From an uncultured virus (IMG/VR IMGVR_UViG_3300042860_000278) (lineage: Duplodnaviria > Heunggongvirae > Uroviricota > Caudoviricetes), in IMG/VR virus record IMGVR_UViG_3300042860_000278: a stretch of DNA of 28,377 bases; one strand, given 5' to 3'. The notes under the pieces were generated by a model. It saw nothing but the letters and a program-made list of their open reading frames with translations. It ran no database searches and was not told the DNA's origin. Shown piece by piece: positions 1-16,108 of the stretch; the stretch's first letter is position 1; the number at the start of each line of letters is the position of its first letter. The position numbers and the translations under genes were made by a program.

Positions 1-3000
1 AATTGATCACGGTAATTATCGATGATCTTGTACCAAGCTTGACGCTGGGCATCATTCTGAAACTTTAAATTGGTGTGCAGCAGCGTCCAGATATACTCAC
101 GCAGCTTAGCGGCACTTACTTGTTCGGTCGTGCCATCTGGCTTGGTGATTTGGAAGTCTTTCTTGGTGTTATCAAGCGGCGCAAACAACATGAACTTGGT
201 GCGGCGACGCTCACCAATGTGCAACGCCTTTAGCGTCTTATCCAACTTCGCCAACACTTTCTTGTATGGCAGTTTTGATTTCTTGCCATAAGCCTTGGCA
301 GCGACTTCGATAGCCTCAAAGCGCGGCATGATGCGGGACACCATGATGCCCTTGGTCAAGCCAGTCGAGACAACCATCCGGTCATAGAAGTTATTAAAGC
401 CGAGTGCGCCCACGTTTTCACGCAGCAACCGGCTAGTCATTTCCAAGCCGTTCTGAATGTCTTTCAAAACGTACCGGTAGTTCTGCAAATCGCGCGCAGC
501 TTTGAGATACGGCGTCCCGGTTAAGAATTCTTTAGCACGTTTCAATAAGCCCTGTCTGCCACCAGCCACAGAGTCGAGTTCATCGACACTCTCTTGGTAC
601 ATTTCCTCTGTGGTGCGTACCTTGGCAGGAGGTGCTTTAAACTTCTTCGCGCCACGCTGAATCAAACGTCCAACATCAACTCGACCCATAGCAATCATCT
701 TGCTTGGGGTACGGCGCAATTCAATGACAGCATCCGCAGTGTTTGCCATCTTTTCAGTGACGCTTAGAATTTGATTCAAAGCACTGTCTGCATCGGACTT
801 GAAGCCAAGCAGATTTGAGACCGTGTTAACGAACTTGCTCCACGCAGAGCGTTCGCGGCGATACGGAATCAAACGGAGCAACGCTTGTACTGAGGGATCA
901 GTCAACGCCCACGTATAGATTTCATCAATCTCATAGGTGAGCCGACCATTTCGGTCACGCTTCAATATGTTCAGCGACATCATGTCCTGAACCAAGGCTC
1001 GCATTTGATTGTTCTTGGGTAGGTTATTAGCGAGGTGCTTTAACTGCCTACCAATGTAATCACCTACTTCCTCGTACTCATCAACTGCATCGGTCAGATC
1101 GTTCTTAGTTCCAATAGCCTTTGCAGCGCGTCCAAGCTGGACGAGAGGCAACATGACGGCATGAACTATTTCATGCAACAAGGTTTTGTAATCGGCGTAA
1201 CTACTGCCAATCTCAACCTCAACACCCATGTTCAACACACCGGGCTGTCGATCTGGGTCTGCTTGCGTATAGAGCGTAGCGCGTCCTTGTGCGCCGCCCG
1301 GTAGTGACTTGACGACGCGAACCGGGAAGTCTTTCACAAGACCAGACGACACCAAGTAATCCAACACCCGCAGGAGTTGGTCAGCAACCATTCTGTAGGA
1401 TGGGCTGTCCGACGTTTTAACTACGAGGTTTAGTACCTGTACGAGTGACTTGCCATTGATCGCGTTGATCAGGGCGTCGTCGCTGAGTTCCTTACTTGTC
1501 TGCTCTGGAGTCTCTTCCAAGGCAGCGGTTGTCTGCTCAGGCGTAGCAGAGGCTTCCGACAACATGCCCGGAGTTAACTGCTCACGTTTACCTGTAACAC
1601 GCGCTTCGCGCTCAACAGACGGAGGAGCCTCGCCACCTATCTCTTTAGGTGCGCCTTCTTCCTGCGCTGCCTTAACACCGGTAGTCGCTGCGGCTTGCTT
1701 AGTGACCTTCTCAAACTGCTTGGCTTGCTTAGAAACTGCGGCGCGTTCCTTCTTTTTACCAACGCGCTCCTCAACTTCATCAGGCAGTTCGACCTTCTCT
1801 TCAACGATTGGCTTCGCCGTACCAGCCTGTATCTGTTGATAACGCTGAGCCGCTGCATTGACGATCTTAGAAGTTTCAGTCAGGTCAGGCGGGGTGACAG
1901 GATTACCCGCATCATCAACCGGGTTGGCAGCAAGATTGATGTCCGCAACAACTCGGTTGTAATCAGGCGTGGAGATTGCCCCTGCTCGGAGCAACGCTTG
2001 TGCAGCAGCCTGATATTGATCACGCTGTTCCGGTGCTAGTGCAGGGAGGACTCGACCCTTTCCAACATCAGTTGTACCAACACCTGCTCCAACACCCCCC
2101 AGTCCAGCGGACTTAGGAGGCTTAGTGGTCCCTGCGGCGGCGGCTCCTCGTTTTTGTACAACAGTTCCAGTGCCTGTTGCACCTGTTCCAGCGACAGCCT
2201 TCTGAGCAGTAGTTCGTGGGCGTAATTCACGTTTGGGTAACTCCAGTAGATACTTACGCTTTCTTGTCTTCGGGTCTGCCTTAGATACTACGCCGTTCTG
2301 TTGATAGGCATCCATCAATTCAACGGCTTGCTGACGCTCAAGCCCCGTGGCTTTTATGATCGCCGGGACGTTTACATCTTTGCGGTTCATCGCCGCTTCT
2401 TTCAGAGCCTCTGCACCTTTCTGATAAATCGGACTAGCAGGGTCTGTAAGCGGGATTGAAGGAGTGCCTTCCCCTGCTTCAAAAATTTGAGCAGAAGAGT
2501 CTGTGGGTTTGAATGTTTTTAAACCTTGATCCGTCAACGGACGTACGCCGTTGGGCATCATGTCCCCAACAAGACCCTGCGCTTGCATCTGACCAAGGAT
2601 ACGGTCAGCGTCTTCCATGCCTATGTTGAGAGCGCGTCCCAAGGCAGATGTGGAGACGCTAGCAAGAACAAAGTCCGTGCCGTCTTCTTTCTTTTCGGTA
2701 GGCGAGACCTGCCCAGACATAACAACGTTTACCGCGTTGTTATATAACTCTTCTGGTATTGGCTGCGCTTGGGGGGCCGGAGGCAGAGTTGTGGTCGTAG
2801 TTTCAGTCGTAGTTTCAGTCGTAGTTTCAGCAGGCGTGACTGTAGGCTGGGGCGTAACAGTTTTAAGCGACTGCAAACCTTCAACTCGGCCGGTAATTAG
2901 GTCAGCCTTTTTCAGTTTGCTGAGCAGAATACCCGCGCCTTTCGCATCAATATTGAATTTACTGCGAAGGATTTTGTTCCACTGATCTTTGACAGTCTCG

Positions 3001-4400
3001 TTGCCAAGGAGACGAATCGTATCTAGAGCGCGTTGCTCTAGTTCGTTAAATCCTTGGAAAGGTTCTGTTGCGGGAACAGTCTCAAATGTAGGCAGCGTAA
3101 CGTTGCCCTTGAGTTCTGTTGGTTTATCTTTCGGAGAGACAACTGTACCCGTGCCACCAGCAGGAGGCGCAGCAGTCGTAGTTACAGTAGCCGGTTCTTT
3201 CTTTTCAAGATCCGTCAGACCATAAGTCTTGACAGTATCTTTACGTATATCGTTGAGGATGCCGATTTCTTTTTCGAAGCTCTTGGCTTCGTCAATCATC
3301 TTCCTAGATTCTTCCTGCGTATACACGCCGGGAATCTTTAACTGCGCTTCAATCTGCGCGATCCGAGTCTGGTAATCGGCAACCTGACGGTCGAGTTCAG
3401 CGACGCTCTGGCGCGGCGTGAGTTCAGGTGGTTCCTGTCTTAATGCACCAAGAGCCGTAGCAGCACCGGCTTGGACACCACCGCCTACAAGCGTAGCGAT
3501 GGCAGTAACAACCTGCCTTCTGCCTTGAATAAGAGCGGCTTCGCCAGCCGACTGTGCGTTAGCAAGTTCTTCATCAAGCCCGTTTGCGTAGGCGTTGAGT
3601 GACTGCAAAAGAGTCGCAGCCTGTTCGCCCGGTATTTCACCCGCAGCAAATTTAATAAGTTCGTCTTTGACACCCTTGAGCGTCTTAACGCCAAACGCAT
3701 CGGTTAAGAATTTAGATGGGAAGTACTCCGTGCCTACTTCAATGATGGCATCAACGTTGCCGTATAGCGACGCTTGCTCAGGAGTTTTCCCTTCTTCACG
3801 CGCTTCAGCATAACTTTGCTGACGAGTGCTTAGTCCCGCTAGGGCCAAGTTTGGTAATGAACTACGTGCAGCAACAGACGCAATTAATCCCGGTGATTGA
3901 AAAATAGCACTCTCAATACCAGATCGAACGCCTTCTTCAACAACGTTCAAATCTTCTGGAGTTGCTTGACGGATGCGCTCATCGCTAGCGCGAAGCTTGG
4001 CAAGGTATTCTTGAGTTAGTTCATCTACTCGTTGCTGCGCTTCAGCGTCGTCTTTCTTTAGAATCTTCTTGGCTTCGTCAGTTTTCTCAACCATGTACGA
4101 ATAGCCAAGCTGTTTGAATCGCTCAGCTATAGACGTACCAAGTCCGGAGAAAAGCCGCCCAAATCCACGTTCTCCCACAGCAGCCATTGCTGCGGCTTCT
4201 GCGGGTTGACCCGGTTGTACTTGTGGTTGACCCGGTTGTACTTGTGGTTGACCCGGTTGTACTTGTGGTTGAGCCGGAGCGGGTTGTGCAGCATCACCCG
4301 CAACAAGTCCACGTTTGCGGGCTTCTTGAAGTAAAGCAGCTTTATCAGGTGGTAAAATCCCTCGACGCTCTGCTTCCAACAAAAGTTGGATATTAGCCAT
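1..4400 (-). CDS. Giant internal virion/ejection (polyvalent-type) protein, 3'-truncated by the window edge (>1466 aa); FtsK-gamma-like repeats and HExxH zincin domain
   Basis: ATG at 4398-4400 overlaps the upstream TAA and begins MANIQLLLEAERRGILPPDK. It is absent from the ORF track, consistent with no in-frame stop inside the window; segments translated by hand are open. TLLHEIVH with HEIVH at 1161-1175. Confidence 0.88.
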   Translation of the reverse strand, partial: MANIQLLLEAERRGILPPDKAALLQEARKRGLVAGDAAQPAPAQPQVQPGQPQVQPGQPQVQPGQPAEAAAMAAVGERGFGRLFSGLGTSIAERFKQLGYSYMVEKTDEAKKILKKDDAEAQQRVDELTQEYLAKLRASDERIRQATPEDLNVVEEGVRSGIESAIFQSPGLIASVAARSSLPNLALAGLSTRQQSYAEAREEGKTPEQASLYGNVDAIIEVGTEYFPSKFLTDAFGVKTLKGVKDELIKFAAGEIPGEQAATLLQSLNAYANGLDEELANAQSAGEAALIQGRRQVVTAIATLVGGGVQAGAATALGALRQEPPELTPRQSVAELDRQVADYQTRIAQIEAQLKIPGVYTQEESRKMIDEAKSFEKEIGILNDIRKDTVKTYGLTDLEKKEPATVTTTAAPPAGGTGTVVSPKDKPTELKGNVTLPTFETVPATEPFQGFNELEQRALDTIRLLGNETVKDQWNKILRSKFNIDAKGAGILLSKLKKADLITGRVEGLQSLKTVTPQPTVTPAETTTETTTETTTTTLPPAPQAQPIPEELYNNAVNVVMSGQVSPTEKKEDGTDFVLASVSTSALGRALNIGMEDADRILGQMQAQGLVGDMMPNGVRPLTDQGLKTFKPTDSSAQIFEAGEGTPSIPLTDPASPIYQKGAEALKEAAMNRKDVNVPAIIKATGLERQQAVELMDAYQQNGVVSKADPKTRKRKYLLELPKRELRPRTTAQKAVAGTGATGTGTVVQKRGAAAAGTTKPPKSAGLGGVGAGVGTTDVGKGRVLPALAPEQRDQYQAAAQALLRAGAISTPDYNRVVADINLAANPVDDAGNPVTPPDLTETSKIVNAAAQRYQQIQAGTAKPIVEEKVELPDEVEERVGKKKERAAVSKQAKQFEKVTKQAAATTGVKAAQEEGAPKEIGGEAPPSVEREARVTGKREQLTPGMLSEASATPEQTTAALEETPEQTSKELSDDALINAINGKSLVQVLNLVVKTSDSPSYRMVADQLLRVLDYLVSSGLVKDFPVRVVKSLPGGAQGRATLYTQADPDRQPGVLNMGVEVEIGSSYADYKTLLHEIVHAVMLPLVQLGRAAKAIGTKNDLTDAVDEYEEVGDYIGRQLKHLANNLPKNNQMRALVQDMMSLNILKRDRNGRLTYEIDEIYTWALTDPSVQALLRLIPYRRERSAWSKFVNTVSNLLGFKSDADSALNQILSVTEKMANTADAVIELRRTPSKMIAMGRVDVGRLIQRGAKKFKAPPAKVRTTEEMYQESVDELDSVAGGRQGLLKRAKEFLTGTPYLKAARDLQNYRYVLKDIQNGLEMTSRLLRENVGALGFNNFYDRMVVSTGLTKGIMVSRIMPRFEAIEVAAKAYGKKSKLPYKKVLAKLDKTLKALHIGERRRTKFMLFAPLDNTKKDFQITKPDGTTEQVSAAKLREYIWTLLHTNLKFQNDAQRQAWYKIIDNYRDQ
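2036..2230 (-). CDS. Putative nested (+1 frame) 64-aa helical protein inside the giant gene
   Basis: GTG start with GGAG at 2241-2244 (10-nt spacer); Leu/Glu/Gln-rich amphipathic product, while the host frame is a low-complexity G/T/A/V linker over the same span. Confidence 0.55.
   Translation of the reverse strand: MNYAHELLLRRLSLEQVQQALELLYKNEEPPPQGPLSLLSPLDWGVLEQVLVQLMLERVESSLH
2794..2830. repeat. 12-bp tandem repeat x3 encoding (ETTT)3 linker
   Basis: gtcgtagtttca repeated exactly three times. Confidence 0.95.
4204..4272. repeat. 21-bp tandem repeat x3.3 encoding (QPQVQPG)n
   Basis: ggttgacccggttgtacttgt exactly three times plus a partial copy. Confidence 0.97.
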
Positions 4401-5923
4401 TAGCCGCCTCCGAGCGCCGCCATAATTTCTTCATTAGTCATCGAACTAGGATCAAGCGTTGGAGATCGTGCAGCACCCGGCGCAGCCTGATTAGTTTGTG
4501 CTAAGCCCAACAGACGGTCTTCTTCGGCCTGAATCGCTGCTTCAAGTTGAGCAACGCGATTTGGATCAGCTTTATCGCGCTTGGCTTCTTCAAGCCGCTT
4601 CTGATTTCTAAGTTTATAAATCTGGCTGTTGGGGTTCTTTTCCGCGTTTTGAAGCGCAGTTACGCCTGCACGAATCTGCTCGCGATTGATACCCGCCTGT
4701 CCAGTGATGTACTGCGGTTGGAGCTTCTGCATGTTGGCAGTGACTGAATTAAACTTGGCTTGAGCAGCCGCGAGTTCTTCTGGCGTTTTAGCCGCACGAA
4801 GAGCTTTGATTGCCGCTTCGATGTCTTCCTTGAACAAGCCCAGCGGGCCGAGTTGACCCTGTGATCTTTTAAGATCATTAATCATGCGTTCACGAGCAAG
4901 CTGGACCTGCTCTCGCTGTCCGCCGTAAGTCATCATCGCTGTTCCAATACGACCTTCTTCCGCTGCTACAGCAGCCTCGTCAGCCATACGAGCAGTGCCG
5001 ATACGATCAAAGTCAGCCAACTTGGCGTTGGCATAATCACGACGCGACTTGAGTTGCTCACCCTTCACGCCGCGCTCTTCAACATCCAACTCACGGCGGG
5101 TCTTGCCAAGGCGAGCCGCAGGTTCAGCAAATCCAGTTGCTACCGCGCCCAAAAATCCCTGAGTACTCCTAGCAATCTTGTCTCCGGCCTCAAGAAAGAA
5201 CATTGCCTTGGCTTCATCGCGCCGTGCAGCAATGTTGGTAATCGCATCCTTGAACATCTTGGTCTGTTCTTTGTTGAGCTTGTCTACGCCCAGCGAATCA
5301 GCCAATGCTTTACGAGCCTTCTCTTGGCTCTCTTGGCTGGTGCGCGGACGACGCTGCAACACCATTCCAAGACCTTGAGCCTGCATCTCAGAGGGCTTCA
5401 TCTTGGCGATATTCTCTGGAGCCATCATGGGGTTCGGAGCCGGTGCAGCCGGAGCCGCCGGATAGAACGAAGCGGCGTCTACCTCTGGATACTCCTCGTC
5501 TTCATCATTCAATCCACCCGCACCAAACGCCACAATGCCACCACCTTTGGCACTGAACGTACCCGGACGAGCAAGCGTAGCCGCGCTCGTAGCCGGAAGC
5601 CCAGCGGGTGCGCCGCCCATCATAGGCGGCTGTTGTACAGGCATCTGCTGCTGCATCTGCGGGGGTGGGGCAGCGTTAGCCACGGCATTCTCAAGACGCT
5701 GACGAATCGACGGCTGCTGCATCGCTTGCTGCTGTTGCTCCGGCGACATGGCTTTACCAATCAACTCGGCGCGATTCTGCAAGTTCATCACGTAAACAAG
5801 GCTAGAGGGCAACTCTCCGCGATCTACTCGCGCCATGAGTTCCTGACGAAATGCCTGTGGGTCTTTGCCTTTTGCAGCCTGTTGCAGTGCAAGCAGTCGC
5901 GGGTCAGTAAGAATGCCATTCAT
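4400..5923 (-). CDS. Putative DNA transfer/ejection protein (507 aa)
   Basis: Helical Ala/Gln-rich ORF with AKGGGIVAFGAGG motif; lies between the pilot-like gene and the giant gene (P22 gp20-like position). Confidence 0.7.
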   Translation of the reverse strand: MNGILTDPRLLALQQAAKGKDPQAFRQELMARVDRGELPSSLVYVMNLQNRAELIGKAMSPEQQQQAMQQPSIRQRLENAVANAAPPPQMQQQMPVQQPPMMGGAPAGLPATSAATLARPGTFSAKGGGIVAFGAGGLNDEDEEYPEVDAASFYPAAPAAPAPNPMMAPENIAKMKPSEMQAQGLGMVLQRRPRTSQESQEKARKALADSLGVDKLNKEQTKMFKDAITNIAARRDEAKAMFFLEAGDKIARSTQGFLGAVATGFAEPAARLGKTRRELDVEERGVKGEQLKSRRDYANAKLADFDRIGTARMADEAAVAAEEGRIGTAMMTYGGQREQVQLARERMINDLKRSQGQLGPLGLFKEDIEAAIKALRAAKTPEELAAAQAKFNSVTANMQKLQPQYITGQAGINREQIRAGVTALQNAEKNPNSQIYKLRNQKRLEEAKRDKADPNRVAQLEAAIQAEEDRLLGLAQTNQAAPGAARSPTLDPSSMTNEEIMAALGGG

Positions 5924-5925
5924 TA

Positions 5926-7749
5926 TTAACCACCCCTACCGAAGAGATTACCCAAACCATACGCCGTCATACCTGCACCGGCAATCTGATTGACCATGCT
6001 AGGCTGCGCTGCGTAAATCGCTTGAGACGAAGTCGTTGTAGGAATACCGCGCAATACGTCAGACAAGAAGCCCAGCTGCGAGTACGGATAACGCTGCTGA
6101 GCAAGGAAGTCTTGATACTGCTGCTCCAGACGCTGCTGTTCAAGAGCCTGAAGCTGCGACCCCATGCCCATCTGCGCTTGAGCCGCTGCTTGCTGCTGAC
6201 CAAACTGTTGCTGGCCTAAGTTGCCAAGCTGACCCGCCGCAGCCAACTGCTGTTGCAATGCCTGAAGGCCAAAGTTACCACCAAACTGCCGGGACTGCTC
6301 AGCAAGCTGCGCTCCCTGCAAGCCAAACTGCGCCATCTGCTGCTGTTGAGCCAGAGCCTGTTGCTGAGCCTGAAGTTGCGCGGCCTGATTAAGCTGCTGC
6401 GCTTGCAACTGCTGACCAGAACCCAACTGCTGTACGCCAAGCAATGCAGCCAGATTCTGCTGACCTGTCGTAAGCCCCGCCTGCTGGTTGGCAAGTTGAG
6501 CCTGCATGCCCTGCTGAGCGATGAACTGACGACGCGCTTGCTCGGCAGCGAGGTTCTGCTGACCGACGTTGAAGCCCATCTGCTGATTGGCAAGCCCTGC
6601 CTGCATCGCCTGTTGAGCGCCAAGACCCTGAGTCTGCAACTGAGCAGCCAAGTTTTGCTGACCGGTCGTGAGACCAGCCTGTTGGTTAGCCAACGCAGCT
6701 TGAAGACCCGCTTGAGTGCCTAATTGCTGAACGCCAAGTCGAGCCGCCAGATTCTGCTGACCGGTGCTAAGCCCAGCCTGTTGATTGGCAAGCGCAGCTT
6801 GCATTTGAGCGGCACGGTCTGCACCGAACTGCTGCTGTGCCTGTTGGAAGGCTTGCTGACGACCTGTGGCCTCAATATCTCCAAGGCGATCCTGCAACCC
6901 GCGACGGGCTTCAGCCTGAAGCAACGCCTCACGAGTACCACCTTTAGCACCCGCACGAGCCGCAGCAGCACCCATACCGGGCAACTGACGAGCATAGTCT
7001 TGAACAGCGGCTTGCTTCTGCTGCTCCACCACATCTTGCATGTAGGGAGACATGTATTCGCGAGCTTGTTGAATACCAAACTTATCGGCACCAACCCGCT
7101 CAGCCTGCCCCATTTGATACTGTTCTAAGCCACCAATACCAACGCGCTCTGGGCCAGCCATACCAAACTGTTGCAATTCAGGAGCGCGAACCGCTTCGGG
7201 ACCACGCATCGACAACTCGCCGTACCCCTGCCCCTGCACCTGTGGGGTGGGAGCCATCTGATAATTGCGTAACTGCGGAGCCTGAACACTGCCGTAAGCA
7301 AGATCCATCGGCTGATAGAACTGCCGCTCCTGCATCGGTTGATAACCGGCTTGAGCCATCTGGTTCGCTTGTAGTCCAGCGAGTCCAGCGAGTCCTGTAG
7401 CCTGTTGAGTCTGAGCAGTCGGACCTAATTCAGCCGTACCTTGAATCGCTTGATTCTGAAGCGGGTTAAGACCCGCCATGCGCTGACCGCCGTAGACTTG
7501 GTACGGAACTTTGTTAACGTCAGTCAGTGCTTCGACACGCCCCAAAAGGCGCAGAGCAGTCGGCATCAACTGCTCGGGGATCGTGTTCTGCGTAATCGTT
7601 TGCTGAGTCGGAGCAGATGGGGCGCTACCGCCACCACCGTATGCAATGTTCGACTTCAGTTTGATGAGCGCACGGTCACCAGAATTAAAGTATGCCTCCG
7701 GCGATTCTTCATAGAAGCCAAAGTCGTGGAGCTTATTTACGCGCCTCAT
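5926..7749 (-). CDS. Gln-rich DNA pilot/ejection protein (607 aa; P22 gp7-like position)
   Basis: Follows the GNAT-like gene; leader then YGGGGSAPS; Q/A/G/L-rich repeats; C-terminal small-residue hydrophobic helix (QIAGAGMTAYGLGNLF). Confidence 0.75.
   Translation of the reverse strand: MRRVNKLHDFGFYEESPEAYFNSGDRALIKLKSNIAYGGGGSAPSAPTQQTITQNTIPEQLMPTALRLLGRVEALTDVNKVPYQVYGGQRMAGLNPLQNQAIQGTAELGPTAQTQQATGLAGLAGLQANQMAQAGYQPMQERQFYQPMDLAYGSVQAPQLRNYQMAPTPQVQGQGYGELSMRGPEAVRAPELQQFGMAGPERVGIGGLEQYQMGQAERVGADKFGIQQAREYMSPYMQDVVEQQKQAAVQDYARQLPGMGAAAARAGAKGGTREALLQAEARRGLQDRLGDIEATGRQQAFQQAQQQFGADRAAQMQAALANQQAGLSTGQQNLAARLGVQQLGTQAGLQAALANQQAGLTTGQQNLAAQLQTQGLGAQQAMQAGLANQQMGFNVGQQNLAAEQARRQFIAQQGMQAQLANQQAGLTTGQQNLAALLGVQQLGSGQQLQAQQLNQAAQLQAQQQALAQQQQMAQFGLQGAQLAEQSRQFGGNFGLQALQQQLAAAGQLGNLGQQQFGQQQAAAQAQMGMGSQLQALEQQRLEQQYQDFLAQQRYPYSQLGFLSDVLRGIPTTTSSQAIYAAQPSMVNQIAGAGMTAYGLGNLFGRGG
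6409..6804 (-). repeat. Four 33-aa (99-bp) imperfect repeats with 11-residue sub-periodicity
   Basis: MQAALANQQAG-LSTGQQNLAAR-LGVQQLGTQAG and three similar copies. Confidence 0.9.
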
Positions 7750-8189
7750 TTCGGCACCTCATCAAAATATTTTTCAAACACCACGGATTTGGCCGTGTAG
7801 CCATACTTCTTTACGTGCGGCTCCCAGCCGGGGCGACCAAAGAACTCAACCCCGTTACAGCCCATATCACGAGCGAAGCGATCAGCGGTCTCATGCATTC
7901 TGTCGGACACGTAACGCATATGCTGCGCTTCCATCGCGCAGTACTGAATCACAAAGAGTTTGCTCTTCGGGTACTGCTTAATTTCAGTTATAACGTATCC
8001 GTAAATCGTGCTGTCAGTCGGATCAAACACGACCCATAACTGCATCTGTCCGGTCAGCACAAACCGAACGATGTCATCTACACCAGAGCGTCCCTTGGTC
8101 CAACCCTCTGACTTCTCAAAGTACTTGATCAGCGACGGTACGACGTAGCTAATCTGGCCGTATGGGATTAAAGAGATGTCGAGATTCAT
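7746..8189 (-). CDS. GNAT-fold-like virion assembly protein (147 aa; P22 gp14/T7 gp13-like position)
   Basis: Alpha/beta pattern with QLWVVFD...YVITEIKQYP and FARDMGCNGVEFFGRPGW; immediately upstream of the pilot-like gene. Confidence 0.65.
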   Translation of the reverse strand: MNLDISLIPYGQISYVVPSLIKYFEKSEGWTKGRSGVDDIVRFVLTGQMQLWVVFDPTDSTIYGYVITEIKQYPKSKLFVIQYCAMEAQHMRYVSDRMHETADRFARDMGCNGVEFFGRPGWEPHVKKYGYTAKSVVFEKYFDEVPK

Positions 8190-8195
8190 CCAGCG

Positions 8196-9026
8196 TTATC
8201 CGATTAATTGTCGGGGGTCGTAGGGCTGTGAAAGTAATTGCTGTTTTTGCCGTTGCAATTCAGCCGCTCGTTGAGCTTCAGCCGTTTTCGCCATTTCCAT
8301 TTGTGCAAGAAGTTGAGGATTTTGGCCTGTGTACATGCCCGCATAGGGTTCTTGCGGAACAGGCATACGCTGCTGATTAGAATAAGTCAGTGGGCCAATA
8401 CCACTAGGAGGTGGTGACGACGGATAAGGCACGGAACCACTCATCCCACCAAACAAACTACCAAGCCCACCGCTGTAGTTAGGCTCTGGAACGACACCTC
8501 GCGTGGCTTCAACCGGCATCCGCAACTGCATATCACTCATTGGCATATCCGGCATAGGACCAACCGGATACTCTCTCCGCATATCACTCAGTTGCCCACC
8601 ATCCGCGAACGGATTGCGGCGAGTAGGATACTCAGCAGGCATTACAGCGGGACGAGCCCTAGGAGGCGTATCCGGCATCACAGCGGGAACAAAACGCATC
8701 TCATCCGGTGGCGGAGGTGCCTCGACAGGCGAACCGTACGAGCGAAACGGACGAGCGTAAGCATTACCGCCACCCATACCGCCAAGCCCGTACGACCGCA
8801 CCTGCGGCTGTCGTGGCTGCATGAATGCCTGATCGTAGAACGTCGGCTGCGACGGCGGCATATAGACTTGCGGTTGCTGCGGCTGTTGCTGCGAATACGG
8901 GTTAGGGTTGTATCCACCCTTACCACCGCTCGGAGCCGGTGCGCTTTGCGCGTATGGTGCGCTAGGCTCGGGGGCTGCGCCCGTAGCTCCGGTTGAATAA
9001 CTTGGTGCGCTGCCGCCTGAACTCAT
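8196..9026 (-). CDS. Pro/Gly/Gln-rich low-complexity protein, probably internal virion (276 aa)
   Basis: Coupled ORF (ATGA overlap); contains GGKGG and FADGG motifs. Confidence 0.7.
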   Translation of the reverse strand: MSSGGSAPSYSTGATGAAPEPSAPYAQSAPAPSGGKGGYNPNPYSQQQPQQPQVYMPPSQPTFYDQAFMQPRQPQVRSYGLGGMGGGNAYARPFRSYGSPVEAPPPPDEMRFVPAVMPDTPPRARPAVMPAEYPTRRNPFADGGQLSDMRREYPVGPMPDMPMSDMQLRMPVEATRGVVPEPNYSGGLGSLFGGMSGSVPYPSSPPPSGIGPLTYSNQQRMPVPQEPYAGMYTGQNPQLLAQMEMAKTAEAQRAAELQRQKQQLLSQPYDPRQLIG

Positions 9027-10837
9027 GATCGTCGCCCCGGTATGTATTTTTCAGGTTTGATGGCTTTGGCCTGTCGCGACGTTTTAGTCCGCGCACGACG
9101 CACCTTGTCCATCATCTTATAGAGTTGTTTTGCCCCAGCATCTGTAGAGCCGTTCCCCAAGTGGGAGACTACATCAGCCGGAACTACAAACTCACCATCA
9201 GCCAACCGCGCCGGTTGCCGCCTCGTTCGACTGCGAATTTCAGCCGGGATGTTATCGGACATACCGTCACCCGGACCACGGAGAAGTCGGCCACCGTCTG
9301 AGTAACCACCCAGCGTACTGATGCCGCCCTGATTGAACTGCATCATGCCGGGGTTCATGTCCATCAGTTCGTTTTCAGCCATGCGGTTATAAATGTCGCT
9401 AGTGTCGAATCTAAACGGTCCCGCATTAAAGTCTTGACCGAACTGCTGCCCAAACAAGGAGGCATAGTCATTACCACCACCCAAGTCAGGCGTAGTGGTC
9501 TGCTGGGCAGTTTGAGCAGGTTCAAACTTCTGGGTTTGTGGATTGTAGGTCTCACTACCCGAGGTGTACCCAGTCACAAAAGGATTAATCCCTTGCATAA
9601 ATGACGGGTCAAAACCCGCTAGTACGCTGGGGTCAAATCCTTGGAAATTATTAAAATTGTAGAGATCCTGCACATCTGGGCCGGTTCTATCTCTATTATC
9701 TCTTCTGTCATCTCTTCTGTCGTCTTTGTCCCTTCCATCATCCTTCGGAGGAGGCGTAGTTGGAGGCGGGGGCGTAGTCGGAGGAGGTGTAGTCGGAGGG
9801 GGTGCAGCCGGAGGTGCAACGTAAGTCGGTGACGTTTTAGGCGTACCCGCCGTTATGAATTTGTTCAGGTCACCCAGATACTGCCCCAAAGCCGGGTTGG
9901 CCGGAGCAGTCCGGGGCGGAGGCGTTAACATGCTCCGGTAGTAGTCTTCCATAGTAGGCGGAGGAGTAGGCGGAGGCCTAATAGGCATGGTGTCAAATAC
10001 AGGTTCATCACCTTTCGCTTTACTACTCTCAGCTTTACTACTCTCAGCCTTGCCACCTTCAGCCATGCCCAGAGGCATCTGGGTCGTAAACTGCCCCGGC
10101 GTAAACCGCTGGGTGAAGTACGCCTGACCCGGCTGGTCACGGTTCGGGTTGAGTTCCTGCTGAAACTCCGTACCGGTGTAGAACATCGGCGGAGCAGTCT
10201 TGGGGGCTTTGAGCGGATCAGGCTCAGCCAACAGCATGGGAGCCGCTGCCGCAGCCATAGCAGCCTTGCCGCCAAACATGCCACCGATACCCGGAATACT
10301 GGCGGTAACAGCTTCGCGCGCCGCAGCATCGCCAAGAGAAGCAATACCACGCCCTATATTAGCTAAGTTACCGGTGCCGGTACCCGCGCCAACGGTGGAC
10401 TTCATGATATTTCCAGCGGCGGTTTTTGAGGCTTCTTTAAGCGCCTCGCCCGTCAAACCAGCACCAGCACTTGCTCCAGTTCCGGCCAACGCCGAACCAA
10501 TTCCAGCCCCACCAAACGCGCCAAGACCGGCCAGAAGACCCTTCTTCCAGTCCTTTTCAACGAGACCCGTACCCGCACCAACGAGCAGGGCAGCACTTAG
10601 ACCGCCCGTGAACGGGGCAAGCACCGCACCAAGCACGGTCGGCAGGATGGACTTCAGGAACCCAGCCTTGGGGAGTCCAGTCTCGGGGTTAATCTCAAGC
10701 GACCCCCCATGCGCCATAGCCAGCGACTGCAACCCCTGCACTTCACTGGGGGTCATGTGGACGAGCATGGAGTCATCGCCGCCGCCCCGTGATGCAACGA
10801 GGGAGGCAAGACCACCAAGAGGATAATTGCTGTTCAT
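9023..10837 (-). CDS. Putative internal virion/ejection protein (604 aa)
   Basis: DSMLVHMTPSEV...INPETGLP N-terminal motif, Gly/Ala hydrophobic segment, Pro-rich linker, and C-terminal GPGDGMSDNIPA...RLADGEFVVPADVV motif recognised from phage virion proteins. Confidence 0.75.
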   Translation of the reverse strand: MNSNYPLGGLASLVASRGGGDDSMLVHMTPSEVQGLQSLAMAHGGSLEINPETGLPKAGFLKSILPTVLGAVLAPFTGGLSAALLVGAGTGLVEKDWKKGLLAGLGAFGGAGIGSALAGTGASAGAGLTGEALKEASKTAAGNIMKSTVGAGTGTGNLANIGRGIASLGDAAAREAVTASIPGIGGMFGGKAAMAAAAAPMLLAEPDPLKAPKTAPPMFYTGTEFQQELNPNRDQPGQAYFTQRFTPGQFTTQMPLGMAEGGKAESSKAESSKAKGDEPVFDTMPIRPPPTPPPTMEDYYRSMLTPPPRTAPANPALGQYLGDLNKFITAGTPKTSPTYVAPPAAPPPTTPPPTTPPPPTTPPPKDDGRDKDDRRDDRRDNRDRTGPDVQDLYNFNNFQGFDPSVLAGFDPSFMQGINPFVTGYTSGSETYNPQTQKFEPAQTAQQTTTPDLGGGNDYASLFGQQFGQDFNAGPFRFDTSDIYNRMAENELMDMNPGMMQFNQGGISTLGGYSDGGRLLRGPGDGMSDNIPAEIRSRTRRQPARLADGEFVVPADVVSHLGNGSTDAGAKQLYKMMDKVRRARTKTSRQAKAIKPEKYIPGRRS

Positions 10838-11471: not shown

Positions 11472-13804
11472 CAGCGTCGTCCGTCTGGTCTAATATCAAT
11501 ACGCATCGCGCCTACCTGCCAAGTTTCACCTAGTGCAGTAGAAGCCACACGAAAGGCAACCTGCCTCCCTCTGATGCGGGTATAGACCTGTCCGTTATAT
11601 TGATCAGCCGCAATCGGAATAGTCGCAGTCACATACGGGCTGCTTGACGAGTTGTACGCCGAGCCTGAGTTCTGCCGAGCCTTGATAGTCAGCAACACAT
11701 TTGGCGGATTTGGGTTTGGACTCTGTTCTGTCCCTGCCGTCGATCCTGCAAACGTGAGGTCAGGCAAAATACGCCAGACGTAGGCAAAGTTATGTCCCTC
11801 GCCAATATCAAAGTCTGACGATTCGATGTATGCCTCAATAGGTTGCGGAGATGGGCCTGAGTCATCATCAAGACCAAACTCTTGCAATAACACTTGGTTT
11901 GGCACCCGCAGCGTTACATCTGAGTTGATGACATGACTTGCGGCGGTAGTTTGATTGACTCCACGAATGCAGTTCGGCAGTTCGTTTGGATTATCAATTG
12001 ATTTGCCGCTGTACGAGATTTGCTCCGAGTCAATCAAAACGGTGCCTGAATCCGGATATGACGAGCCGTTGATCAGAGTAATCGTCGTCTGAGTAGCATT
12101 AATGGCAGCATCAAGATAAGAAGACTGAACGCCAAACGCAGCTAGCGGGTATTCACGAAGACTCTGCTCAGCCCACGCTGAACGGTTCAATGTGCCGTAG
12201 TACCAGCTTTGTTCAAGGTAATTATAAATGACGTAGCTATCGTTGACCGTGCTGTTAGCAGACGGGTAGAACCACCAGATCTCGCTGAAACCTTCATTGT
12301 GTCCGCAGGCGACCTGCGCCGCTTGAGACATATTAATGTTGTTGAACACGAACGTACGCAACGTACATGGCAGCGTCTCGACACGACCAGTGTAGGCGTA
12401 GAACTTATCTCGTCCCATCCAATACGTGACGTTGTTCACAGTTCGCAGACAGTTCTGCGAGATGATGGAAATGTCTTGGTCTAGGAGGTTAAAACTCCAC
12501 ACGAACGGAGGCCCGATGTACTGCATCGAATAGATGGCAGCGTCAGTCCAGACCAGCAATTCTTGACGAGAGTTATCCGATGCAACGATGTACGAGCCGT
12601 GCGACAGACGTTGTTCACCAGACTGGTTGGTAACTTCAGGCACCCACTCCCACGGGTTATCTTGGTCAGCCCAACGCACAAGGAGCGGGTCAAAGTCAGT
12701 CGTGAAGTCAGTCGGATCGTATGGAGTTGCTCCCATGCAAACCGTGAAGTCGTTAATAGCCGAGTCGATGACCAGATTTACTTCTCGCGGAACATGACGA
12801 CCGGCGTAGCTAAAGTCCAACGTCAACGTGCCTGATGCAGTCGCAGCGGCAGACAAAGGAACGGTTAAGCCACCAGCCCAAGTTTCAAGAACGTACGCGC
12901 CAGCGGGGATGTTTGTTCCGGTTACAACCGAGCCAGTATTGATACCAGTTGCATCAGAGACAGTGATGGTCGTTGCGCCAGACGTAGTTATGCCAACGCT
13001 TGAAAATTTAACAACTGAATTGGCTTTGGTTGAAAGCGTAACTGCCCGTGCCCAAGTCGTCGTGTCACGTTCCCAATAGAAAACTTCTCCGCCACGTTCA
13101 GCGAAGATAATGTCGTTACCGTAGTTAAACGCAGACCAGATACGAAGTTGAACGCCTTCTGGAACATTTGACCCCCAGCCACCAGCGCCCCACGGGGGTC
13201 CGCCCCAACCTACACCGGTTGTATATACAGCGTTGCCAGCGTTGATATCAAACGTAGCAATTACAGCCGAACCTCCACCCGTAACAGCAGAGACGTTGAT
13301 AGATGGTGAGAAGATCGTGAATGTGTTGCCGCTAGGTATAGAGACAACTTCATACGGACCATTTATGTACAGAGGCTGACCACCGACAGTCAGCGTAGTC
13401 GCACCTGAGAACGATACATACGTGCCAAGCGACAGCCCGTGTGCTGATTTGGCGACGAATATGTTCCGAGTATTTGCTTCTGTAGTAAAAGGATTAACAG
13501 TCAGACTTGCAGTTGAAGCGGCCGGAGTGATGTCGTTGTAGTCACCGCCTAGTTCTACATAGACCTTCTGGTTGGTCCCAACGAACATCAAATTCAGTCC
13601 GTCTGTGGTGACGTAGTTCCAGAGGTATCGGGCAACACCATCATAGGTATCGCCAGTGTCAGAGGAGTTAGTCCAACCACCGATCTTCTGGGCATAGCCA
13701 GAACGAAAGCGAACCTTATCGCTGCTGTAGTAACCGCCTTCGTTGGCGTAGTTAGTGGATTCGCGGTTTACGCCAGCGCGGAATTGAAGTTTTTGCAGTG
13801 CCAT
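11471..13804 (-). CDS. Tail nozzle / tail tubular protein B-like (P22 gp10-like) protein (777 aa)
   Basis: Size, Trp/Tyr-rich propeller-like repeats (DPLLVRWADQ, ELLVWTD, EIWWFYPS) and C-terminal RIRGRQVAFRV...RIDIRPDGRR. Confidence 0.75.
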   Translation of the reverse strand: MALQKLQFRAGVNRESTNYANEGGYYSSDKVRFRSGYAQKIGGWTNSSDTGDTYDGVARYLWNYVTTDGLNLMFVGTNQKVYVELGGDYNDITPAASTASLTVNPFTTEANTRNIFVAKSAHGLSLGTYVSFSGATTLTVGGQPLYINGPYEVVSIPSGNTFTIFSPSINVSAVTGGGSAVIATFDINAGNAVYTTGVGWGGPPWGAGGWGSNVPEGVQLRIWSAFNYGNDIIFAERGGEVFYWERDTTTWARAVTLSTKANSVVKFSSVGITTSGATTITVSDATGINTGSVVTGTNIPAGAYVLETWAGGLTVPLSAAATASGTLTLDFSYAGRHVPREVNLVIDSAINDFTVCMGATPYDPTDFTTDFDPLLVRWADQDNPWEWVPEVTNQSGEQRLSHGSYIVASDNSRQELLVWTDAAIYSMQYIGPPFVWSFNLLDQDISIISQNCLRTVNNVTYWMGRDKFYAYTGRVETLPCTLRTFVFNNINMSQAAQVACGHNEGFSEIWWFYPSANSTVNDSYVIYNYLEQSWYYGTLNRSAWAEQSLREYPLAAFGVQSSYLDAAINATQTTITLINGSSYPDSGTVLIDSEQISYSGKSIDNPNELPNCIRGVNQTTAASHVINSDVTLRVPNQVLLQEFGLDDDSGPSPQPIEAYIESSDFDIGEGHNFAYVWRILPDLTFAGSTAGTEQSPNPNPPNVLLTIKARQNSGSAYNSSSSPYVTATIPIAADQYNGQVYTRIRGRQVAFRVASTALGETWQVGAMRIDIRPDGRR

Positions 13805-14292
13805 CAGGCAACTCCAGATAGATACAGCGCACGTTCATCGTTACGCCGTTTGACCAGACCCGGCAGCACTCTACCACCTGCCTTCGTCCACTTCAGAAAC
13901 TCGTCAGCCGCTTCCTCAAACTCGCCCCGATTTGTCTTCATCCGAAGGGAAGAACGCTGGAGATTGCCAAGACCCACGTTGAAGGCAAAACTAACGAGAG
14001 AATCGAAGACTCCCTGATTGCCAACAGCAGCAGGGCAAAGTCGAACCACACCACGCTCAAACCGGCCAAGGTCTTGAGAAAGTATCCGGTCCACCTCGTC
14101 CATCGTGAGAACCCGGTCCCAGCCTGCGGGTATCGGTAGATTTTTGCGCTCCTCATACTTCACCGTAGCGTGAGCGGGGTCAATCACATGGCCGACACCG
14201 ACAGTCCACAAAAGGGCAGGGCAGCGGTAAGGCTTGGTCCGTACCCCCTCGTGATGTTTGATCATGTCGATAGCAGCCTTGGAGACTTTCAC
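13804..14292 (-). CDS. Endolysin, GH24 phage lysozyme (162 aa from GTG)
   Basis: IKHHEG...PYRCPALLWTVGVGH catalytic region, FDSLVSFAFNVG and LPGLVKRR; GTG at 14292 overlaps the holin stop, so I prefer it to the ORF-track start at 14322. Confidence 0.92.
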   Translation of the reverse strand: MKVSKAAIDMIKHHEGVRTKPYRCPALLWTVGVGHVIDPAHATVKYEERKNLPIPAGWDRVLTMDEVDRILSQDLGRFERGVVRLCPAAVGNQGVFDSLVSFAFNVGLGNLQRSSLRMKTNRGEFEEAADEFLKWTKAGGRVLPGLVKRRNDERALYLSGVA

Positions 14293-14774
14293 TTCTTGCC
14301 GAACGCCTGCGTGCCGAACCAAAAGGCTATGATTGACGACAGTATGAGCATCTCGTCGTCAGAGAAAACTTCTGCCATCGCCGCAGCAAACGGAACGCCA
14401 GTGTTGTAGGCATACCAAACGCCCGCGATGTTGATAGCAACGAGTTCCAACACGAAGATGTAAGTCACGACCGGACGGACAGAAGCCCGGAGGTTGATCA
14501 TCCACTGACTCGCGCCTTTGCCGATTTCCATGTCGTGCTGATACAGGGCTTGGCGCTCTTCGCCTGCGGTCTGTGTCTGAATCTGCTCTAGTTTGATCTC
14601 TTCGACCCGAGCCTGAGCAATGAACCCACGCTCAGCCAGCGCCAACTCACGCTCCTTCTGAGCCGCAACCAAGGCTAACTCATGCTTTTTGTCTTGCCGG
14701 TCTTGGAAGATTTGCAGGATCTTAGGCAGCCCACCTGCGAGGAAAGACAAGAAGGTTGAAACCATTGTCATCAT
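14289..14774 (-). CDS. Holin-like membrane protein (161 aa)
   Basis: Hydrophobic segments, LRASVRPVVTY motif and IIAFWFG C-terminus; immediately upstream of the lysozyme. Confidence 0.75.
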   Translation of the reverse strand: MMTMVSTFLSFLAGGLPKILQIFQDRQDKKHELALVAAQKERELALAERGFIAQARVEEIKLEQIQTQTAGEERQALYQHDMEIGKGASQWMINLRASVRPVVTYIFVLELVAINIAGVWYAYNTGVPFAAAMAEVFSDDEMLILSSIIAFWFGTQAFGKK

Positions 14775-16108
14775 GGGTGCGTCCTCTTGTACTCGTCGAA
14801 CTCGGCTTTGAGTTCTTGGATAGCTTTGATTAGCGGGGCAATAAATTCGCCATACGCCAACGTAACGCGATCTTCACCGCCATCAATAGTTCCATCTTTG
14901 TATCCGCCAAAATCCGTGCCGATGCTGTCCATGACCGCTTTAACTTCTTGAGCGATCAAACCTTGATGCAAACGGTTACGCTTCTTGGAACCATCATGAG
15001 TCAGGTTTTCCAACTTACAGGCTTCATTGTACGCATCCCACTCTTCCTTGGTCGCATCCGGACCCGGCTTTGGAGGTCTGTAATCTTCGCGGTAGTCCCA
15101 GCGATACATTACTGGACGAAGAGCCATAATAAAGTTCAAGCCAAGATTAGTATTTTGTACGTCTGCCTTATCACGGATGTCAGAGGCGCGATCTACAACG
15201 GCACCATAGGCGTAAGCAGTAGTGCCAGAATTACCCAACTGCACTTGGTTACTGCCAGTAACAGCAGAGTCATAACCAAGGCAGGTAGAATTGCTGAAAT
15301 TACCTGTTAAATAGGCAGAGTCACCAAGAGCAGCATTGGTGCTTCCAGTGCTTATGTTGGTACCAGCTTGATATCCAACCAAAGTATTTGCTGGACCAGT
15401 GGTCACACTGTCTCCAGCCTGATAACCAATTAAAGTATTCCAGTTTGCGGTTGTAAGGGCTAAACCGGTGCTTCCGCCAATACAGGTATTAGACCCGCCA
15501 GTTGTAATGGCGGTACCCGCATTGTTTCCAAACACAGTATTACCGGAACCGGTCGTCATACTGTCGCCAGCGTTAGCGCCAACAGCCGTATTCTCGGTCC
15601 CGCTTCCAGCACCTTTACCAACAAGTACGCTATTGATAGAAGCGTTATTGCTTACAGTTAGACTCGTAACTGTAAGATTGGTTAGGGTTACACTGCCGCC
15701 GCCAGTAGAAATATAAGTAGTTGCTTCAATAACATCTGTGCCGTTGCTAACCAGAATCTTCTTGTCGCCTTGAGGGATGGAAATACCCGTCTGACCAGCG
15801 ACCTTCATTGTGATCGTGCCGGAGGTGCAGTTGTTGTAGACGAAATAGAGTTTCTTGTTGGACGGGACAATGACCGTGCTGCCGTTACCCGTGAACTCCA
15901 AGTACATGTTACGGGCTACGCCGGTTGAGCCATTCGGGATGGTAAGGGTTAGCGTGACTCCAGAGGTTAGGGCTTGAGTTTCGTACCCAGAAATGGCCTG
16001 CTCAAGCAGGGTTCCCAAGTTAGTATTGGTGATATCACCCCAAGTACCGGGGTTATCGTTGGTGCCCTGAAGAGTCAGAGCAAGGTTAGTTGAATAACTT
16101 GTAGCCAT
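14771..16108 (-). CDS. Tail fibre/spike with C-terminal peptidase S74 intramolecular chaperone (445 aa)
   Basis: 17-aa NTxxGxxAG..TTG repeats; SDIRDK...LRPVMYRW, HQGLIAQEV and a terminal coiled coil (PLIKAIQELK). Confidence 0.88.
   Translation of the reverse strand: MATSYSTNLALTLQGTNDNPGTWGDITNTNLGTLLEQAISGYETQALTSGVTLTLTIPNGSTGVARNMYLEFTGNGSTVIVPSNKKLYFVYNNCTSGTITMKVAGQTGISIPQGDKKILVSNGTDVIEATTYISTGGGSVTLTNLTVTSLTVSNNASINSVLVGKGAGSGTENTAVGANAGDSMTTGSGNTVFGNNAGTAITTGGSNTCIGGSTGLALTTANWNTLIGYQAGDSVTTGPANTLVGYQAGTNISTGSTNAALGDSAYLTGNFSNSTCLGYDSAVTGSNQVQLGNSGTTAYAYGAVVDRASDIRDKADVQNTNLGLNFIMALRPVMYRWDYREDYRPPKPGPDATKEEWDAYNEACKLENLTHDGSKKRNRLHQGLIAQEVKAVMDSIGTDFGGYKDGTIDGGEDRVTLAYGEFIAPLIKAIQELKAEFDEYKRTHP

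Follow-up and report, generated by a model that had tools for sequence, protein, structure and literature searches.

A conserved small reading frame, probably a gene, overprinted on the spacer of a giant virion-protein gene in uncultured aquatic phages

The giant gene and the reading frame nested in it

IMG/VR record IMGVR_UViG_3300042860_000278 is a stretch of 28,377 nucleotides (nt) of DNA from an uncultured virus of the Caudoviricetes, which we call the window over its whole length. Its minus strand carries the 5′ part of a giant gene and, inside this gene, a short open reading frame (ORF) shifted by +1. Sequence comparisons indicate that this ORF, at 2036–2230, is very probably a genuine protein-coding gene that is overprinted on a spacer of the giant virion-protein gene and initiated independently of it. 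Comparison of homologous loci shows that many uncultured phages from aquatic samples, which form a large family, have kept its frame, start signals, selection pattern and nesting. The features that matter for this reading are the following.

3–4400, minus strand: giant host gene of virion polyvalent/ejection type; its 5′ 1466 codons, open at the 3′ side, where it runs off the end of the window
2541–2660, minus strand: FtsK-gamma winged helix (Pfam), residues 581–620 of the host protein
2226–2453, minus strand: helix-turn-helix (HTH)-like segment of the host protein, residues 650–725, just 5′ of the nested start
2241–2244, minus strand: Shine–Dalgarno (SD) core GGAG, separated from the GTG by 10 nt (TTACCCAAAC)
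2228–2230, minus strand: GTG start codon of the nested gene; equally long homologues, for example P0013 and L064, have ATG at this alignment position
2036–2230, minus strand: nested +1-frame gene, 64 amino acids (aa) and a TAG stop; product predicted to be acidic, Leu/Glu/Gln-rich and helical
2036–2104, minus strand: C-terminal family motif [DE]W.hL..hL..Lh.E[KR]....[LV]H-stop, the basis of the DNA search pattern
2036–2038, minus strand: TAG stop of the nested ORF
2031–2213, minus strand: Gly/Thr/Ala/Val spacer of the main frame, TTAQKAVAGTGATGTGTVVQKRGAAAAGTTKPPKSAGLGGVGAGVGTTDVGKGRVLPALAP, residues ~730–790, overlapped by the nested gene

The nested peptide starts with MNYAHELLLRRLSLEQ and ends with ERVESSLH, and the open stretch around it measures 83 codons from stop to stop. 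The first-pass annotation of this DNA had described a GGAG 10 nt before a +1-frame GTG that opens a 64-aa ORF, a second geometry in which the same GGAG lies 3 nt before CCC-A, and a main frame that turns into a Gly/Thr/Ala/Val linker over this span. All three descriptions hold when the letters of the window are read directly: on the minus strand, the main frame at the site is CTG GAG TTA CCC AAA CGT GAA, and the residues encoded over the span are those of the spacer listed above.

In the relative L001, where the giant gene is complete, it comprises 2350 codons. FtsK_gamma matched the giant protein with 31.6 and 33.3 bits (Pfam cut-off 30.6), and LPD38 was found near the C-terminus of the full-length relatives L001, P0003, and P0005 (41, 42.1, and 35.2 bits, respectively; cut-off 27). 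A tblastn search further gave weak similarity to internal virion/ejectosome proteins of podoviruses (phiKMV-like Pseudomonas phages). Given these domains and its structural-gene neighbours, we assign the host gene to the phage-type large polyvalent proteins. In the passages of Iyer et al (2017; PMC5512222) that deal with polyvalent proteins, LPD38 is restricted to phage-type members and the FtsK winged HTH is an infrequent DNA-binding module of them; the words "overlapping" and "frameshift" have 0 occurrences in those passages.

The nested start had also been placed directly after a third gamma-like domain. Part of this description stands, as FtsK_gamma passes its cut-off at residues 581–620. 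It does so only there, as residues 650–725, the segment just 5′ of the start, gave only weak HTH_28 and MarR_2 matches (E ~0.1), and the first gamma-like segment had no Pfam match. A third gamma-like domain before the nested start is thus plausible but not established.

Conservation of the nested frame

The Leu/Glu richness of the nested frame is a mechanical outcome of shifting ACT/GCT/GGA-type codons by one base (CTG, GAA, and CAG codons arise in this way from ACT-GGA or GCA-type codons), and +1 open stretches of 72–90 codons are common in the giant gene. The ORF could therefore be a by-product, in which a Gly/Ala/Thr-rich spacer read one base on gives a stop-poor, Leu/Glu-rich frame whose conservation stems from main-frame or nucleotide constraint. 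The low recognition score of the peptide in the ESM Atlas, given below, also fits such an origin. Conservation is the feature that goes beyond chance.

Two close relatives were available as DNA, L001 from IMG/VR (gene at 2848–9900) and L006 from a JGI metagenome (gene at 2083–9129), and both encode a 64-aa peptide identical to that of the window. Five sites vary inside the nested ORF (window positions 2225, 2186, 2177, 2144, and 2065), every one of them by a transition. All five changes are silent in the nested frame, a Leu TTG/CTG exchange among them, whereas four replace a main-frame residue (T/A, T/A, A/T, and V/A) and none falls at main-frame position 3. The flanks show the opposite: main-frame position 3 accounts for 19 of their 25 variable sites, and only 3 of 25 are synonymous in the +1 frame (Fisher tests of nested span versus flanks, p=0.0032 and p=0.00039). 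The chance that five randomly placed transitions would all be synonymous in the +1 frame is ~0.01. As an internal control, all other scorable alternative-frame open stretches of at least 45 codons in the gene behaved as main-frame-coding only; in three examples, 7 of 8, 10 of 11, and 6 of 7 differences were synonymous in the main frame and 1, 0, and 1, respectively, in the alternative frame. The other long +1 stretches of the gene thus lack the pattern of the nested ORF, which speaks against a by-product.

One further ORF deserves mention on its own account. A 73-aa, ATG-started ORF in the +1 frame lies just downstream, at 1637–1858 on the minus strand; only one of the differences within it is synonymous in its own frame, and L001 lacks its stop, so that the ORF there reaches 94 aa. 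Judged by these differences, it is a by-product and would not represent a second nested gene.

The giant gene is mosaic among these relatives. The window shares ~50% nucleotide identity with L001/L006 in some parts, while gene positions 1800–2700, which hold the nested ORF, are 96–99% identical between L001/L006 and the window. Relative to L006, the first ~1500 nt are ~50% identical, positions 1800–2700 98–99%, and later parts 44–86%; the pattern in L001 differs. The nested gene lies mid-way in a shared module of ~1.2 kb.

To find more distant members, a phmmer search of 1.84 billion representative proteins was run with the 64-aa query. It returned six proteins of 57–74 aa, 43–57% identical to the query (E 4e-7 to 5e-4), all of which end in ..LH and five of which are encoded on contigs of 21–48 kb. 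From the C-terminal columns of these six homologues we wrote a degenerate DNA motif, which matched once in the window and 0 times in 100 shuffles. In IMG/VR the motif marked at least 119 loci in 24 of 64 parts, or an estimated ~320 for the whole collection. Among 596 gigabases (Gb) of GTDB genomes it gave seven matches, five of them clear family members on contigs of metagenome-assembled genomes (MAGs) and two chance-like, from which chance should add well under one match per 100 Gb. The five MAG-borne members (L127, L128, L129, L130, and L132) come from bins labelled Polaromonas, Nanopelagicales, Saccharibacteria, an unnamed bacterium, and Legionella; they are probably phage contigs that were mis-binned, and hence point to no reliable host.

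The recurrence of the peptide inside large phage genes had been proposed as a check on the nested ORF. A tblastn search of 50,697 GenBank phage records with three family peptides had no match, whereas the motif recovered the IMG/VR loci described above. At all 80 loci with long flanks, and also at the five MAG loci, the small ORF lies in the +1 frame inside an open frame of 514–2394 codons. This host frame has at least 1000 codons in 78 of the 80, and the remaining two end at a contig edge. For the 44 loci that are complete from stop to stop, the median host frame is 2037 codons, and the nested stop falls at a median host codon of 592 (range 432–813). The small ORF itself is likewise uninterrupted at each of these 80 loci.

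All 83 giant ORFs fall into one blastp component (E ≤1e-10; high-scoring segment pairs of at least 100 residues outside the nested span). They are nevertheless highly diverged: the giant protein of the window's clade detects 13 of 80 giants directly, at 22–33% identity, and the best majority fraction for a conserved 9-column block sought among the giants was 0.41. Since the small gene is found in giants that can barely be aligned, it is recognisable beyond the reach of giant-gene similarity. We aligned 119 sequences (alignment A3: 112 distinct IMG/VR peptides, the window peptide, and six database proteins), in which L12, A20, L24, L36, and L39, none of them part of the motif, each occur in 90% or more of the rows.

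We also compared the three frames on the same DNA. For 78 unique sequences, a 19-codon block outside the search motif gave a mean pairwise identity of 0.421 when read in the nested frame, but of 0.223 in the main and 0.250 in the third frame; the corresponding values for the C-terminal block were 0.466, 0.279, and 0.295. Over the span, the main-frame peptide does not exceed a non-coding frame in conservation. At nested positions 1, 2, and 3 the nucleotide entropy was 1.29, 0.88, and 1.45, and because position 2 of the nested frame is the third position of the main frame, the latter is the least variable. The upstream flank has the normal main-frame pattern (1.60, 1.61, and 1.86 at main positions 1, 2, and 3).

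Substitutions were also counted in 24 close pairs, taken from a spanning forest in which each edge was counted once. The nested span holds 419 differences (130, 78, and 211 at nested positions 1, 2, and 3), 213 of which are silent when read in the nested frame, as against 43 in the main frame; in the flanks, 199 of 404 differences were synonymous in the main frame and 74 in the +1 frame. The proposal of the first-pass annotation that the nested frame carries the constraint is strongly supported by the close relatives, by family-wide identity, and by the pair counts. Main-frame identity at the level of the third frame, the least variable main-frame third position, the excess of nested-frame synonymous differences, and the retention of start, SD, and stop in more than 100 diverged loci all argue against a by-product, which we regard as very improbable.

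The same data bear on the possibility that the conserved element is not a protein but a signal at the RNA or DNA level within the giant gene, for instance a promoter, a structure, or a site for packaging or regulation. The 160 nt 5′ of the nested start (window 2231–2390, minus strand) are free of substitutions among the window, L001, and L006, main-frame third positions included, as such a signal could require. However, variation follows a three-base periodicity in the nested phase (position 2 < 1 < 3), amino acids are kept through synonymous codon changes, including Leu TTG/CTG, and start and stop codons are conserved. Moreover, a promoter/terminator scan of window 1800–2700 found nothing on the coding strand. 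A signal of this kind is, in our estimation, exceedingly unlikely to account for the conservation.

Beyond the range of available DNA, three homologues of the giant protein (P0003, P0004, and P0005; 47–56% identical in the span) are represented by protein sequence only, with no DNA. Scans of IMG/VR, JGI metagenomes, and GTDB with a giant-protein alignment, made for the DNA of P0003–P0009, returned the two close relatives or nothing. For P0003–P0005 we therefore asked how close to the window peptide a nested peptide compatible with the main-frame sequence of each could come, which gives an upper bound and not a proof. The closest such peptides reach 80–81% identity to the window peptide, against 67–70% (standard deviation 5) in comparable 64-codon windows, and the share of windows that reach the observed value is 0.022, 0.009, and 0.000; the +2 frame is without signal. 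When replacements were shuffled among the changed positions, P was 0.02, 0.02, and <0.0005, and with BLOSUM-drawn replacements P was ≤0.001. In the main frame of P0003–P0005, the only change in length within the spacer up to the nested stop is a one-residue deletion, and an 8-residue insertion follows right after the stop. In addition, the main-frame segment that covers the SD and the nested start, KRKYLLELPKRELRPR, is invariant across five giant-protein homologues. Together, the invariant segment and the indel pattern of the main frame point to an additional constraint here.

Start signals and the case for independent initiation

If the nested frame is translated from a start of its own, initiation signals should be kept along with it. 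Among 117 unique nested ORFs, the best start was ATG in 90 and GTG in 27, and 114 of the 117 have an SD core (AAGGAG, AGGAGG, GGAGG, and similar) before it. The spacing between SD and start is 6 nt in 62 members, 7 nt in 17, and 9 nt in 19. As background, 456 of 7754 (5.9%) other +1-frame ATG/GTG codons in the giant genes are preceded by an SD core.

These signals also bear on the alternative reading that had been offered for the window, namely a prfB-like programmed shift into the +1 frame, in which ribosomes would slip at CCC-A with the GGAG as stimulator and make a truncated isoform of ~790 aa with a helical tail. The elements for it are in place: the SD-like GGAG-TTA-CCC-A geometry is present in the window's own clade, the one examined for it, the +1 frame is open for 19 codons 5′ of the GTG of the window, and the main-frame residues over the site are the invariant KRKYLLELPKRELRPR described above. 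Nevertheless, the A-site codon would be AAA (Lys), which is neither a stop nor a hungry or rare codon. The upstream flank has a mean identity of 0.155 across the family, and hence there is no shared shift site, and the family keeps its own ATG or GTG with an SD core. Of 122 members, 8 have a +1-frame stop immediately before the start codon and 13 have one within three codons of it; in these members, the +1 frame cannot be entered from upstream. We consider frameshifting a very unlikely explanation of the nested frame as a whole, and the prfB-like alternative is disfavoured in particular by the conserved SD and start, the abutting stops, and the A-site codon. Some slippage could nonetheless occur in the window's own phage.

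Several points weigh against a nested gene, and translation of the ORF is itself something that we infer from sequence. Its length is no more than expected by chance, as other +1 open stretches of the same gene reach 90, 80, 72, 55, and 51 codons. Because the loci were collected with a motif of the nested frame, conservation over the last 22 codons is overstated, and the N-terminal block and the flanks are the fair test. Similarly, starts were chosen as the best of ~5 candidates per ORF, for which chance would supply an SD-linked start in about a quarter of cases, against the 97% seen. In the window itself, the SD spacing of 10 nt is longer than the family mode of 6 nt. The codon usage of the nested frame scores −0.30 versus +0.24 for the main frame, yet this is in the top 6% of +1-frame windows; codon-usage scoring was dropped as support for the nested gene because the nested frame is not favoured over the main one. 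The ESM Atlas recognition scores of 2017 and 1787 are under the protein-like mark of 2300. Finally, the substitution-free 160 nt reflect low local diversity for reasons that the nested gene does not explain, and they could mark either a tract that the three sequences share through recent recombination or a further constraint, for example from a translation-initiation region.

We nonetheless favour an overprinted gene, as the first-pass annotation had suggested, in view of the selection counts, the homologues, the motif loci, and the start signals. Under this interpretation, ribosomes would start independently at the internal GGAG and GTG, on a late mRNA that also encodes the giant protein. Purifying selection in the span would act mainly on the nested frame, and the main frame would need only to stay open and to supply a flexible Gly/Ala/Pro/Thr-rich spacer. 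Because the main frame keeps normal codon usage and the nested frame does not, we infer that the nested ORF arose de novo in a tolerant spacer.

The predicted protein, its possible role and its phage

The members of the family are small proteins of ~57–69 aa (median 59 aa). Leu makes up 24% of their residues, Glu 12%, and Gln 10%, and the net charge, which is below zero for 94% of them, has −5 as its median. Across 122 members, the longest run without charged or polar residues is at most 12 and there is no membrane segment; the window peptide contains no Cys. AlphaFold2 (AF2) predicted helices at residues 3–11, 14–26, 35–38, and 41–61, with a predicted local distance difference test score of 78.5 from the single sequence and 83.9 with the 119-row family alignment. 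A two-copy (homodimer) prediction on the same alignment scored 0.01, which weighs neither way.

Database searches found no known relatives of this protein. It had no significant match in Pfam, PHROGs, NCBIfam, or the sequences of the PDB, and comparison of the AF2 models with the folds in BFVD and the PDB gave no match with E <1. Matches in the ESM Atlas were unrelated short eukaryotic "hypothetical" clusters or none that was usable. One candidate identity was NblA (PF04485), a small helix-loop-helix phycobilisome adaptor of ~60 aa with two long helices, with which the family has an LSLEQ-like N-terminal motif in common. We rejected it, given that 115 of 119 members and the window peptide were unmatched, the other four matched at E ≤0.1 with a best E of 0.0019, and the best match of the PDB profile search (E 0.3) was to unrelated chains.

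The arrangement itself has precedents in phages. Lambda Rz1 is an embedded gene in the +1 frame of Rz on the same strand. As here, a small gene lies wholly within a larger one, with its own ribosome-binding site and start, on one late transcript. Unlike Rz1, the nested peptide has no lipoprotein signal or lipobox, and its host gene encodes a virion polyvalent protein of ~2000–2400 aa, whereas Rz is an inner-membrane spanin encoded in a lysis cassette. A further difference is that the overlap falls on a spacer of the host protein with almost no constraint of its own. An embedded two-component spanin (o-spanin) was rejected as an identity for the nested gene, considering the absence of a lipobox Cys, the short uncharged runs, the 2350-aa LPD38 host protein, and an endolysin gene 9 kb away.

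The overprinted genes of phiX174 (B in A, E in D, and K) belong to a tiny single-stranded DNA genome under size pressure. They resemble the present case in out-of-frame overlap, independent initiation, and a nested frame that constrains the host frame. The present phage differs in having a double-stranded DNA genome of at least 43 kb, and the overlap falls specifically in the disordered spacer of a giant gene. Programmed +1 frameshifts are known from prfB and from Listeria phage PSA. The window shares with them an SD-like element 3 nt 5′ of CCC and a +1 frame that is open downstream; it differs in that no stop or slow codon occupies the A site, own starts are conserved, and the +1 frame is closed upstream in some relatives. 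A literature search returned no description of a nested gene in the genes of polyvalent or internal virion proteins. Judging from sequence comparison, we thus take the ORF to be a real, widely conserved, and previously unannotated overprinted gene, in an arrangement that is known but with a protein family without known relatives.

As to function, we can offer a tentative suggestion. The small protein might be a cis-encoded partner of the giant polyvalent protein, either an assembly chaperone or an inhibitor that silences an activity of an HExxH region until packaging. We draw this guess from the expected co-synthesis from one mRNA, which would favour such a role. A bolder version, which we regard as doubtful, would make it an obligate cis-encoded regulator, as chaperone or inhibitor, through which the giant protein or its HExxH-type activity would stay silent but fit for assembly in the producing cell, with small genes nested in spacers forming a general, unannotated coding layer of phages. 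The motif in question, HEIVH at residues 1076–1080 (window 1161–1175, minus strand), is invariant in the five aligned giant proteins. It may belong to an embedded zincin-type peptidase, as described for polyvalent proteins; Pfam gave no match in this region.

The family is present in an estimated 300 or more IMG/VR viral contigs, yet accounts for about a dozen called proteins among roughly 15 billion; a database of 5.8 billion clusters added three further called proteins only. Gene callers omit genes nested in longer genes on the same strand, and this makes the family near-invisible in protein databases. Being the best conserved element in its part of the giant gene, the nested gene is likely to matter for the phage and for the biology of polyvalent virion proteins. 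It would also be a clear case from nature in which an overlapping gene dictates the sequence of a "linker", and it bears on how phage metagenomes are annotated, on the birth of genes de novo by overprinting, and on any recoding or truncation of such giant genes.

The window as a whole resembles phage DNA: its genes all lie on one strand, and virion structural proteins and an "ejection protein" PHROG are among the products. Two neighbours are of interest here.

13804–14322, minus strand: endolysin (phrog_7, E 2e-47), ~9 kb from the host gene
14771–16108, minus strand: tail spike with a C-terminal Peptidase_S74 intramolecular chaperone domain

The nearest record, G001, is 42.7 kb long with an estimated completeness of 67%, and this sets the minimum genome size given above. 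A distant blastn search with the 4.4-kb part of the giant gene found no DNA-level match among GenBank phages. Near its 5′ end, the giant gene contains a PQVQPGQ repeat (residues 38–66; window ~4200–4290, minus strand), present in ~3–4 copies in the window and ~1 in L001. Twenty metagenome runs of lake water from 2020, 2023, and 2024, which may include the source sample, match window positions 1700–2900 with a word share of 1.00. Four of these runs yielded contigs of 9.6–13.6 kb that are identical in sequence and without variant letters, and the lake-water runs suggest a persistent, clonal phage population.

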